From Elusimicrobiota bacterium (GTDB lineage Bacteria > Elusimicrobiota > Endomicrobiia > Endomicrobiales > Endomicrobiaceae): a DNA stretch of 26,573 nt. The position numbers were made by a program, and so were the translations under genes. The first letter of the stretch is position 1; the number at the start of each line of letters is the position of its first letter. The DNA lies in contig JAITCX010000133.1 of NCBI GenBank assembly GCA_031282945.1, positions 1-26,573 on the forward strand, in the 5' to 3' direction. Positions 7,751-10,795 of the stretch are shown here, piece by piece. Below the pieces are notes generated by a model. The model had not been told where the DNA came from. It was given only the letters and a program-made list of their open reading frames with translations, and ran no database searches.

Positions 7751-8686
7751 CTACTTTATATTTACAAATCCAACCGCTATTTTTGCGGCAAGATCTGCAT
7801 TGCTGTAGGCAAGCTGCATATTTGTTTCAAGCGATTTGCCGGCGGTGATATCTTTAATTTTGGAAAGTAAAAACGGCGTAACTTCTTTTCCCTTTATGCC
7901 TTTTTCTTGCGCTTCCTTGACAGCATTTTCTATCGCATCTGAAATTATTTTTTCATCCATTGCATATTCTTTTGGGACGGGATTGGCAACGACAATTCCA
8001 TTTTTAACGCCCATCAATTCATTGAAACGCATGGCCTGCGCTACAAATGTAGGATCGGGCACGGTGTGGTCTAAAGCGTAGCCGCTTGAGCGGGTAAAAA
8101 ATGCGGGAAAATCTTTTGTGTCGCCGATGCCGACAACGGGAACGCCTTTAGTTTCCAAAAATTCCAAAGTGAGTTTTATGTCTAAAATAGATTTGGCGCC
8201 CGAACATACAACGGTGACGGGAGTTCTGGAAAGCTCCTCTAAATCTGAAGAGATATCCATAGTTGTTTGCGCGCCGCGATGCACGCCGCCGATGCCGCCT
8301 GTGGCAAAAACATTGATGCCGCAGAGATTGGCAATACGCATTGTTGCAGACACCGTTGTGCCGCCCAGTTTGCGCCGCGCTAAGACCAGCGGAATATCTT
8401 TAGCGGCAACCTTTATAACATCTTTAGCTTTGGCCAAATCGTCCAGTTCCTGCTCAGTCATTCCAATTTTTATTTTGCCGTCAACCAAAGCGATGAGAGC
8501 GGCGGCGGCTCCCTGCGATTCTATGATGCTTTGCATTTTCAAAGCTGTTTGTTTATTTTCAGGATAAGGCATTCCATGCGTGATAATTGTGGATTCCAGC
8601 GCCACTACAGGAAGCCCATTTTTTATTGCTTGCTGAACTGATTTGCTGATGTCTACAAAATACAAATTAGGATCTTTAAGTGTCAT
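7751..8686 (-). CDS. psuG: Pseudouridine-5'-phosphate glycosidase (PsuG/IndA family)
   Basis: 311 aa; 'PVVALESTIITHGMPYP', 'ATGGIGGVHRG', 'DISSDL', 'CSGAKSILD', 'GKEVTPFLL'; AAGGAG RBS. Confidence 0.93.
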   Translation of the reverse strand: MTLKDPNLYFVDISKSVQQAIKNGLPVVALESTIITHGMPYPENKQTALKMQSIIESQGAAAALIALVDGKIKIGMTEQELDDLAKAKDVIKVAAKDIPLVLARRKLGGTTVSATMRIANLCGINVFATGGIGGVHRGAQTTMDISSDLEELSRTPVTVVCSGAKSILDIKLTLEFLETKGVPVVGIGDTKDFPAFFTRSSGYALDHTVPDPTFVAQAMRFNELMGVKNGIVVANPVPKEYAMDEKIISDAIENAVKEAQEKGIKGKEVTPFLLSKIKDITAGKSLETNMQLAYSNADLAAKIAVGFVNIK

Positions 8687-8790
8687 GATTTTTGTCTCCT
8701 TTAAGGCGCTAAAATGCGCTCAACTCTAAATATTAGGATTATGGGCTTGGCCATAATTTGCAATTTATTTTGCGGGGTGGATATCAATAG

Positions 8791-8819
8791 AATTTACAAA
8801 ATTGTGAAATATATGACAA
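8791..8819 (-). promoter_or_regulatory. Candidate sigma70 promoter of the psuG operon, overlapped by a CRP-family-like site
   Basis: Minus strand TTGTCA (8819-8814), N17, TAAATT (8796-8791); TGTGA-N6-TGACA at 8803-8818. Confidence 0.45.
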
Positions 8820-8857
8820 CTGATTTTTTTCTTTTGTAAAAAAGAATAATGGAATTA

Positions 8858-9063
8858 TTTCTCTTTTGGCAAAAGAGAAACAGAAAAGTAAAGGCAAAGC
8901 ATTTTTCTCTTTTTGAAAAAAGAGAAACAGAAAAACTAACGGCGCTTAAACGTTTATTCTCTCTTTGAAAAAGAGAGACAGAAATTTCTTTTGCCAAAGG
9001 AAACAAAAACTTCTAACGACACTTGCAACTGGCTTCTCTTTTCTGCAAAAGAGAGACAGAAAA
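8858..9063. repeat. Array of five degenerate palindromic units, consensus TCTCTTTT-n(2-4)-AAAAGAGA(A/G)ACAGAAA
   Basis: Units start at about 8858, 8904, 8958, 8985 and 9035; a weaker unit lies at about 8829-8846. Confidence 0.8.
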
Positions 9064-9203
9064 TTAACGCTCTTTAAACTTATTTCTTTTTATTTTTTTG
9101 CGCTTCCTTTTGGTTAAGAACAAGCGCTTAAAGTCCCTTTTTAAAAATTCATTTCTTTCTCATTAAAAGTTCATAACTCCTTTTCTCTTTATCAAACTCT
9201 TAA

Positions 9204-9504
9204 TATTTTTTTGCGCTCCCTTTTTATTTTTTAGCCACGCGCCATGCGAAAATTTTTTTCGCCCCCGCGCCGACTCTACTTTTGACGTGACTGACAGCAG
9301 TCTGTTCTGTCACGCCCGCCTGGGTGAGGGCAAGTGAAACTTCCAGTTTCCCTTGCCCTCTTGGCGAAAAAAATTTCTCGCATAGACAGGCGCTTTGCCG
9401 CTTGCGCTAGGCTAAAAAATAAAAAGAGCGCCCGAGAAAGTACGACACGACAACAGCAAAGACAAGACAAAAAAAACAACTGGAGCGTGGCTAAAAAATA
9501 AAAA
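9204..9504. other. Nested inverted-repeat structured element (possible ncRNA or non-autonomous mobile element)
   Basis: Arms 9213-9236/9410-9431 and 9244-9263/9363-9383 enclose hairpins 9286-9314 and 9326-9360; 9221-9240 is also perfectly complementary to 9485-9504. Confidence 0.6.
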
Positions 9505-9820
9505 AACGCAGGCGAGGGCGACCATACATCAACAACAGCAACAACAAAACAAAAAAATCTCTCGCAAAGCAAACGCTTACGCTCCGCTACGCCGAAAAAC
9601 CAAAAAGAGCGCTGGAAAAATTACAACGCGACAAAGACAAACAACAACAGCGGAAAACATTTCTCTTTTAAAAAAAACAAAATAAAAATTTTTCCCCTCA
9701 TCTCTTAACAACAACTCCCGCCCCAAAATTATTTTTTAAAACTGTTTGATTTCTCCCTTAAACTTCAACTTTTTTGGCTTTTCCTTGAACCCTTTATTTC
9801 CTTGCCCCACCGCTACATCT

Positions 9821-9999
9821 GGGGCTTGTGAGCGCCCGCAAAAGCGCGGGCGCTCACCTTTTAAAAACTCGCTCATTAATATTTAAGTTTTTATATGCAC
9901 TGCAAAAATAACTTTTCAATTCAAAATAAAATCTTGCTCTATTTATCAGCGAGTTTTTAAAAGGGCGGTCGGCGGCAAAGCCGCCGACCGCCAAGCCCC
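9821..9999. repeat. Symmetric cruciform/REPIN-like element
   Basis: GGGGCTT (9821-9827)/AAGCCCC (9993-9999); 12-bp hairpin 9828-9857; 17-bp inverted repeat 9857-9873/9948-9964; 13-bp hairpin 9964-9992. Confidence 0.8.
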
Positions 10000-10033
10000 T
10001 CAATTTTCAAACAGAATTTCAACTCCCCAAAAA

Positions 10034-10795
10034 TCAAAGACTAAACTTATACCCCGCCATAAGCGTAACTACAGAATAAGTATCAAAACTATAAGAATTA
10101 TATGTTTCCACTTCATTTAAAAAATCATCATAAGTCTGCGTGTCCCAAGAATATTTTAAATGCACATAATAAACGCTATAACCCAATTCCACCAACCACC
10201 CATTGTAAAATTCCCAACCAATTCCCGCCTGCCAATAAACCCCATTTTCTTTTTCCATTTTTACCGATTGATCAAGCGTGGGCGAATCCGCCCAAAATAA
10301 TGCAGTGTATCCAAAATTGCCTTTTATAAAAAATTCCCTAAACTGCTTAATTGGATTAGTTTGAACCGTAACATATACCGGTATAATGCTAAATCCAATC
10401 GGCGTATACTCCACCGGCGCATCCCTGTATTCTTCTCCCATAAATTCAAAATTATTGTATTGCACCGCCCACTTTCTATCTAATGATCTCTTGGCAAGAT
10501 AACCAGCCCCAGCCCCAAGTTTTAAATAATCTAAAACTATAATATGCAGATATTCAGCCCAAATGCCAAACGATGCATTGACACGCATTAATTGCGAACC
10601 CTCACGCCCAGCGCCCGCTTCAATGAAATTTCCAGCGCTATCCTCTACAGGATATTTATCCCACGTTTGTTTTGTTCCTATCGTCCCAAAATCAATGCTT
10701 CCCTTAATATTTAATTCGCCTGCCTCCACTGCATAAGAATGCGCATAAACTGAAAATAAAAAAACCATGCCTAATGATAAAATAATTTTTTTCAT
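10034..10795 (-). CDS. Outer-membrane beta-barrel protein (OmpA-like/porin-family barrel)
   Basis: 253 aa; signal peptide 'MKKIILSLGMVFLFSVYAHSYA'; amphipathic aromatic strands; C-terminal 'AGYKFSL'; AGGAG RBS; paralog of 19024-19758. Confidence 0.7.
   Translation of the reverse strand: MKKIILSLGMVFLFSVYAHSYAVEAGELNIKGSIDFGTIGTKQTWDKYPVEDSAGNFIEAGAGREGSQLMRVNASFGIWAEYLHIIVLDYLKLGAGAGYLAKRSLDRKWAVQYNNFEFMGEEYRDAPVEYTPIGFSIIPVYVTVQTNPIKQFREFFIKGNFGYTALFWADSPTLDQSVKMEKENGVYWQAGIGWEFYNGWLVELGYSVYYVHLKYSWDTQTYDDFLNEVETYNSYSFDTYSVVTLMAGYKFSL

Follow-up and report, generated by a model that had tools for sequence, protein, structure and literature searches.

The segment at 9821-9999 is probably a copy of a module, here called E, that closes one end of a dispersed, non-coding repeat, (S-D)n-E, as a palindromic cap; the repeat was found in this genome only. 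On this account, an apparent one-off regulatory device belongs as a module to a repeat system that spans the genome, and the features at 8829-9079 and 9091-9504 correspond to modules A and B, in one mosaic with 9821-9999. The window, meaning the whole stretch of DNA that was analysed (26,573 nucleotides), was contig C56 of a genome of 252 contigs, 1.51 Mb and 37% GC; the assembly was a fragmented MAG, 85.5% complete, with contigs of 2.5-27 kb. With regard to the host, the homoserine dehydrogenase encoded in the window showed 67-79% identity to its counterparts in termite-gut Endomicrobiaceae MAGs (Endomicrobium, Parendomicrobium, Endomicrobiellum), and the single sequencing run found to contain the window was a DNA run of a termite gut metagenome, with no RNA run found to contain it. 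Contigs aligned over 9400-10400 were short unitigs whose joints mirrored other repeat copies. No tRNA or tmRNA was found within the window.

The hairpins and inverted repeats that a sequence-only reading had placed in the segment were all found at their positions, both by reading the sequence and with a repeat finder (Table 1). The symmetric four-way cruciform that it had proposed was also obtained, as RNA and DNA folds both gave a four-way junction with zero unpaired junction bases. The minus-strand RNA fold of a 191-nt stretch reached -102.3 kcal/mol vs. -50.7 ± 4.5 kcal/mol for shuffles (z = -11.5; 0 of 200), and the plus-strand DNA fold of the E stretch gave z = -11.3. The inner inverted repeat was perfect over 17 bp (9857-9873/9948-9964). 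The left and right hairpins (HP-L and HP-R) had the same position and different sequences, as had been described, the stem of HP-R being unrelated in sequence to that of HP-L; on the minus strand, HP-R was followed by CTTTTAAAAA. Module E may be viewed as two inverted half-units, each composed of GGGGCTTG, a GC hairpin and CTTTTAAAAACTCGCT, with HP-L and HP-R as different sequence lineages for which mutual pairing would be impossible. One strand would fold as a locked four-way junction, because two hairpins of different lineages cannot inter-pair.

Table 1. Coordinates of the structural parts of module E, of the modules of the mosaic and of the neighbouring genes in the window.
Feature	Position	Strand	Description
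Outer inverted repeat, left arm GGGGCTTG	9821-9828	+	Stem P1 of the four-way junction
Left hairpin HP-L, GCGCC type	9828-9839/9846-9857	+	Perfect 12-bp stem, 6-nt loop, then CTTTT; -27.3 kcal/mol
Inner inverted repeat, left arm	9857-9881	+	CCTTTTAAAAACTCGCT, perfect part; 25 nt at 92%
AT-rich core, 74 nt	9874-9947	+	Conserved motif CAAAATAAAAT at 9922-9932 (24-copy alignment)
Inner inverted repeat, right arm AGCGAGTTTTTAAAAGG	9940-9964	+	Repeat finder, alifold and covariation
Right hairpin HP-R, GGCGGC type	9964-9976/9980-9992	+	Perfect 13-bp stem, 3-nt loop; -31.2 kcal/mol
Outer inverted repeat, right arm CAAGCCCC	9992-9999 (plus TC to 10001)	+	Sharp right limit of the whole repeat
Whole composite	8823-10001	+	Fills the gene gap; 30-170 BLAST matches per segment
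Module A	8823-9115	+	Genome-wide BLAST segments
Module X	9116-9197	+	Genome-wide BLAST segments
Module B	9198-9366	+	Genome-wide BLAST segments
Module b	9367-9480	+	Genome-wide BLAST segments
Module c/C	9481-9650	+	Genome-wide BLAST segments
Module S	9651-9697	+	Part of the unit always before E
Module D	9698-9820	+	D-like sequence before all 24 E copies
Module E	9821-10001	+	Palindromic end-cap
Gene upstream of E	10034-10795	-	253 aa, no Pfam match; 3' end towards E over 34 nt
Gene downstream	7751-8686	-	Indigoidine_A-like, psuG-type; 5' end towards the A end of the composite

A repeat family, anticipated from the window, was supported by a search of the genome for further copies, which gave 24 full and 3 partial copies of E. 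The number varied little with the method: the inner-repeat motif occurred as 21 pairs spaced 70-75 nt apart, BLAST of the element returned 26 copies, and a covariance model made from 24 copies returned 27 matches (24 full, 1 cut by a contig end and 2 partial). Pairwise identity among copies had a median of 69% and a maximum of 89%. All copies were directional, with the GCGCC hairpin type on one fixed side and the GGCGGC type on the other. The left flank of E was conserved D sequence (..ACCGCTAAATCT) and the right flank was unrelated and variable; beyond CAAGCCCC(TC), all copies diverged immediately. The extent given to the element by the sequence-only reading was incomplete at the left end, 9821, as conservation ran on into 9651-9820. 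The GGGC/GCCC of the outer arms was unchanged in 24 copies.

Outside this genome, the covariance model found the element in 0 of 88 other Endomicrobiaceae genomes, and the half-unit pattern occurred in 0 of 400 genomes of the phylum (24 occurrences in the own genome; reversed control 0). The exact inner-repeat pair had 0 matches in all GTDB species genomes and JGI metagenome contigs, and a BLAST search of 30 relatives with the 1186-nt mosaic returned trivial low-complexity matches only. Lineage-specific therefore means here not found in the genomes searched, which include no other member of the genus of the host. Rfam 15 gave 0 matches at the gathering score, the best sub-threshold scores being 23-25 bits vs. 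thresholds of 90-100 bits. A protein-coding E was rejected: the longest open stretch switched strand and frame between copies, and none was consistently open. A full-text search of papers on Endomicrobia and Endomicrobiaceae gave no description of such repeats. The (S-D)n-E family is new for Endomicrobiaceae and belongs to a familiar general kind, the modular palindromic intergenic repeats.

When the gap between the neighbouring genes (8687-10033) was compared with the genome by BLAST, it was wholly repetitive from 8823 to 10005. Modules followed the grammar A-(X)-B-(b or C)n-(S D)n-E, with order and relative orientation fixed at about 110 loci; ABbDE, ABbSDSDSDE and AXBbDDDDDD are examples of the module strings. 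Annotated modules numbered 143 for A, 105 for B, 94 for b, 61 for D, 51 for C, 43 for X and 26 for E. Together they took up 62.4 kb or more (4.1% of the assembly) on 125 of the 252 contigs, in mosaics of 0.4-1.4 kb that lay in gaps between genes. Fifty-eight of 504 contig ends lay inside modules, and modules A to E probably account in large part for the fragmentation of the MAG.

Every E was preceded by a module of about 125-170 nt, D (with S). At C228:7440-8189, C226:51-900 and C50:236-1050, 4-6 D units lay in tandem at periods of about 142-170 nt, and each tandem D unit carried GGGGCTTG and the left arm alone of HP-L (C228). Because D units carry GGGGCTTG and the HP-L left arm, E is read as an inverted 'turnaround' that closes the D array and not as an inserted stranger. 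The limits of the D unit varied between loci, with or without S, which suggests repeated local amplification.

The mosaic was made of two repeat families, A-X-B-b/C and (S-D)n-E. Copies of module B had a median identity of 93% to the window copy, vs. about 76% for D and E, and by these identities module B, of the younger family A-X-B-b/C, is much younger than D and E. The (S-D)n-E family stood alone, without A-X-B-b/C, on C39, C101, C135 and C188, and over half of all D-E units, that of the window among them, were joined to A-X-B-b/C in fixed order. One E copy, at C49:149-414, was truncated within the core and continued as a piece of the A/B family in inverted orientation. This locus shows that the A/B and D/E families rearrange or insert into each other.

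Mosaics were oriented with respect to genes, for which ORFs of at least 90 aa served as proxies. The E end was towards a gene 3' end at 19 of 23 loci (one-sided binomial p = 0.0013) and the A end towards a gene 5' end at 58 of 83 loci (p = 0.0002), the A boundary often being about 10-50 nt from the start of the next gene. The minus-strand order in the window, gene 1 (10795 to 10034), E-D-C-B-A and gene 2 (8686 to 7751), was the usual layout across loci. On short contigs, the cause of the orientation bias could be the replication strand rather than transcription. No other hairpin lay between the stop codon and E at 8 loci at least, including that of the window, and a native terminator lay in between at about 5. 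In the window, HP-R was the first terminator-like structure after the gene at 10034-10795, because the 34-nt spacer from its stop codon to E had no hairpin of its own.

The placement at 3' ends leads us to infer a candidate role of E as a terminator or insulator, as judged from gene positions and hairpin features. Read from the neighbouring gene, the outer hairpin and its U4 tract would act as a modest intrinsic terminator, and the mirror-image hairpin would halt transcription entering from the opposite side. As a convergent pair of modest terminators, E would insulate the repeat array from its neighbours, and would then be a compact bidirectional part. Inward terminators had been suggested before for the two hairpins, and the geometry agreed with that suggestion; the T-runs did not, with only 4 T each. 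Stems of 12-13 bp and -27 to -31 kcal/mol were followed by the tract CUUUUAAAAA (4 U), and a terminator scan with the rule of at least 5 T in 8 called neither hairpin.

Conservation of the fold was strong. RNAalifold on the 24-copy alignment recovered the four-way junction independently, and in the covariation count 94.8% of stem cells were paired, with both-side changes in 19 of 34 pairs (85 cells). None of 500 shuffles reached any of five measures, and slid partners were only 41-66% paired. Double changes occurred in 6 of 8 pairs of the HP-L stem and in 7 of 10 pairs of the HP-R stem, and the inner arm CTCGCT/AGCGAG covaried to CCCGCT/AGCGGG and TTCGCT/AGCGAA in other copies.

Stems were almost exclusively made of Watson-Crick pairs. 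Per-copy folding of 44 E hairpins gave 515 Watson-Crick pairs vs. 1 G-U pair (0.2%), and with a common procedure G-U pairs were 0.8% in E hairpins vs. 5.8% in 123 native terminator-like hairpins. Copies of E made up 0.3% of the genome, yet of the 81 perfect GC-rich hairpins counted in it, about 45 were in E. As each G-U pair leaves a C-A mismatch on the complementary strand, pairing would be either needed on both strands or restored in DNA. Template-switch correction of quasipalindromes is an established mutational mechanism, and the hairpins of E may be kept as true DNA palindromes by such template-switch ('quasipalindrome') correction, by a need to fold on two strands, or by both. The near-absence of G-U points to upkeep as true DNA palindromes, with selection on a single RNA unfit as a cause. 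Copies that are only 69% identical and have perfect, wobble-free stems offer a clean natural case in which to separate DNA-level palindrome upkeep from RNA-level selection.

The term REPIN-like element, which had been applied to the segment, agreed with its form, that is, two inverted palindromic units with compensatory changes. A REPIN is defined by two inverted REP units and a spacer (PMC3116915). REPIN and REP-BIME elements of Pseudomonas and Enterobacteria share with E the inverted palindromic units around a spacer, the extragenic position, compensatory changes that keep the fold, an alternative 'clover' fold, which the REPIN authors propose to be the form that is recognised, and higher-order mosaics (PMC3116915). 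In contrast to REPINs, which occur as hundreds of near-identical copies, E had about 25 divergent copies in an Elusimicrobiota host, two hairpin lineages that lock the junction and no RAYT that could be found, and was never free-standing. A bona fide, free-standing REPIN was thus not what was found, as E was always fused to D and the assembly had no RAYT. The absence of a RAYT or recombinase gene from the window, noted by the sequence-only reading, was confirmed there, and the assembly also lacked Y1/RAYT matches.

A genuine REPIN, with hairpins that serve as REP-like sites for a Y1 (HUH) RAYT/IS200-like transposase acting on single-stranded DNA and with the gene of that enzyme unassembled or recently lost, appears unlikely. 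The matching architecture, the Watson-Crick-only stems, which point to structure at the DNA level, and the Y1_Tnp genes that 18 of the 88 family genomes carry argue for it, against which stand the lack of a PF01797 match in this 85.5%-complete assembly, the constant fusion of E to D, and the small number of copies (about 25), which lack a master sequence (maximum identity 89%, median 69%). Two hairpin lineages per element would also require one enzyme dimer to read two stems. Several of the Y1_Tnp (IS200/RAYT-type) genes of relatives had internal stop codons and a decayed look.

That E is a multicopy structured RNA, either an sRNA gene or a cis element (e.g., an RNase III or exonuclease-blocking structure within the upstream gene's 3' UTR), with the junction selected as RNA, is decidedly unlikely. 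The low G-U content (0.2-0.8% vs. 5.8% in native terminators) is unexpected under selection on one RNA strand, even though the very strong covariation, the very stable fold, the structure held despite a divergence of 31% between copies and the location after gene 3' ends (19 of 23 loci) would all agree with an RNA. Both strands folded equally well, neither had a conserved promoter, Rfam had no match, and E was present in one genome only when 88 genomes of the family and 400 of the phylum were searched.

It is quite improbable that E is a relic in decay that now has neither activity nor function, and whose stems are perfect only through template-switch correction of long GC palindromes. Old and divergent copies, Watson-Crick-only stems, the truncation of one copy (on C49) by another repeat and the failure to find a transposase are as expected from a relic; the gene-orientation bias (19 of 23 and 58 of 83 loci) implies selection on seating in transcription units, and the unpaired flanks GGGGCTTG and TTTTAAAAAC were invariant or nearly so in the 24-copy alignment, both of which argue against it. 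Little probability is likewise given to E as a DNA-level cruciform device whose two hairpins, different in sequence and Watson-Crick throughout, would be read by a structure-specific enzyme, or as a fold-back 'turnaround' that seeds amplification of the D array. If it were one of these, the A-to-E mosaics, at least 4% of the genome, would be a mobile or amplifying class without known transposase families.

An invertible switch with a promoter-like core, the other proposal made from the sequence, was not supported. The minus-strand TTGAAA (9919-9914), 18-nt spacer and TATAAA (9895-9890) were literally present in the core. A consensus promoter scan made no call on them, as the second hexamer misses the final T, and they occurred in the window copy only, with no sigma-70-like site conserved on either strand; the best shared promoter-like site was found on the plus strand in 11 of 24 copies, with weak AT hexamers coming from the repeat arm itself. 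A search for invertase genes gave three recombinases in the genome (1 serine and 2 tyrosine, on C180, C201 and C217), none of them near E and all at least 1.7 kb from any module. A switch in which a recombinase flips the 74-nt core between the 17-bp repeats, and so toggles transcription towards the array and psuG, is extremely improbable in spite of the perfect 17-bp inverted repeat around an AT-rich core with promoter hexamers in the window copy and of the recombinases in the genome, because the core had a single orientation relative to its asymmetric flanks (D side and hairpin types) in 24 of 24 copies, the hexamers were in no other copy, no recombinase gene was in the window or beside any E copy, and the inverted repeat belonged to a larger covarying four-way junction and not to an isolated pair of sites.

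As a dispersed end-capped repeat, (S-D)n-E would be a non-autonomous element whose spread is past, with its mobilising enzyme lost or unassembled. We infer mobility from copy dispersal only. Profiles of Y1 (PF01797), DDE_Tnp_1, rve, TnpB-type and RVT_1 had no match in the assembly, no target-site duplication was visible at E copies, and no near-identical E copies were found, the closest pair being 89% identical. Terminal inverted repeats, a trait of MITEs, were present as GGGGCTTG/CAAGCCCC together with mirrored half-units of about 55 nt. Classification as a strict MITE was rejected for the lack of a target-site duplication and of a parent IS or transposase with matching ends in the assembly. 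The hairpins were rejected as a target-site duplication, since HP-L and HP-R differ within the element and each is homologous across loci. A retroelement origin, considered for mosaics that share the A end and stop variably at the opposite end, was rejected, with no reverse transcriptase and no supporting feature found. An IS91/Helitron-like origin, raised by the CTTG ends, was also set aside after the Y2_Tnp profile gave no match in an assembly search whose positive control was likewise silent.

In build and behaviour, E resembles REP/BIME/REPIN, BOX and SPRITE elements, and neither its sequence nor a defining enzyme places it in any of these groups. The Correia elements (CREE) of Neisseria, about 100-180 bp in length, are intergenic palindromes that end in inverted repeats, and once transcribed they can stop transcription or be cleaved as double-stranded RNA. 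Module E is likewise palindromic and intergenic and has terminal inverted repeats; Correia elements differ in their 26-bp terminal repeats, their TA duplication and their standing alone, whereas no duplication is seen at E, which always caps an array. BOX elements of Streptococcus (boxA-boxB(n)-boxC) share with the composite the fixed terminal modules and variable tandem internal modules, and are also intergenic and strongly folded, follow the coding strand and have an uncertain mobilising enzyme (PMC3049150). The composite differs from BOX in its length (0.4-1.4 kb vs. about 0.1-0.3 kb), in being made of two families of different age, and in a terminal module that is itself a four-way junction. 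The likeness to BOX is only of the 'works like' type, sequence homology being unlikely given the other phylum and the lengths. The pneumococcal SPRITE, similar to a Rho-independent terminator, is also dispersed, terminator-like and enriched beside gene 3' ends (PMC3049150), but has a single long stem and a long U-rich tract where E has convergent GC hairpins, 4-T tracts and a 17-bp stem. The traits by which E stands out are the locked junction of two non-identical hairpins, the capping of a tandem array in mosaics of about 1.2 kb and the Watson-Crick-only stems in copies with an overall identity of only 69%.

At the other end of the mosaic, module A consisted of tandem small AT-rich hairpins (TTCTCTTTT-loop-AAAAGAGAA, then ACAGAAAA), repeated about every 46-52 nt. 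Its outer limit (TTCTCTTTTRTAAAAAAGAG) was sharp and often abutted the ribosome-binding site of the next gene. Module B (in the region 9198-9650 of the window) was a nested inverted repeat rich in GC; after it came 1-5 homologous b/C units, with A/C-rich low-complexity tails at their ends. The plus strand at 9198-9650 was strongly skewed, with an AT skew up to +0.66 and a GC skew down to -0.48. Between module A and the start codon of the psuG-like gene lay a unique spacer of 137 nt; TTGTCA-17-TAAATT was found in it on the minus strand at 8791-8819 and is a plausible candidate for a native promoter downstream of the mosaic.
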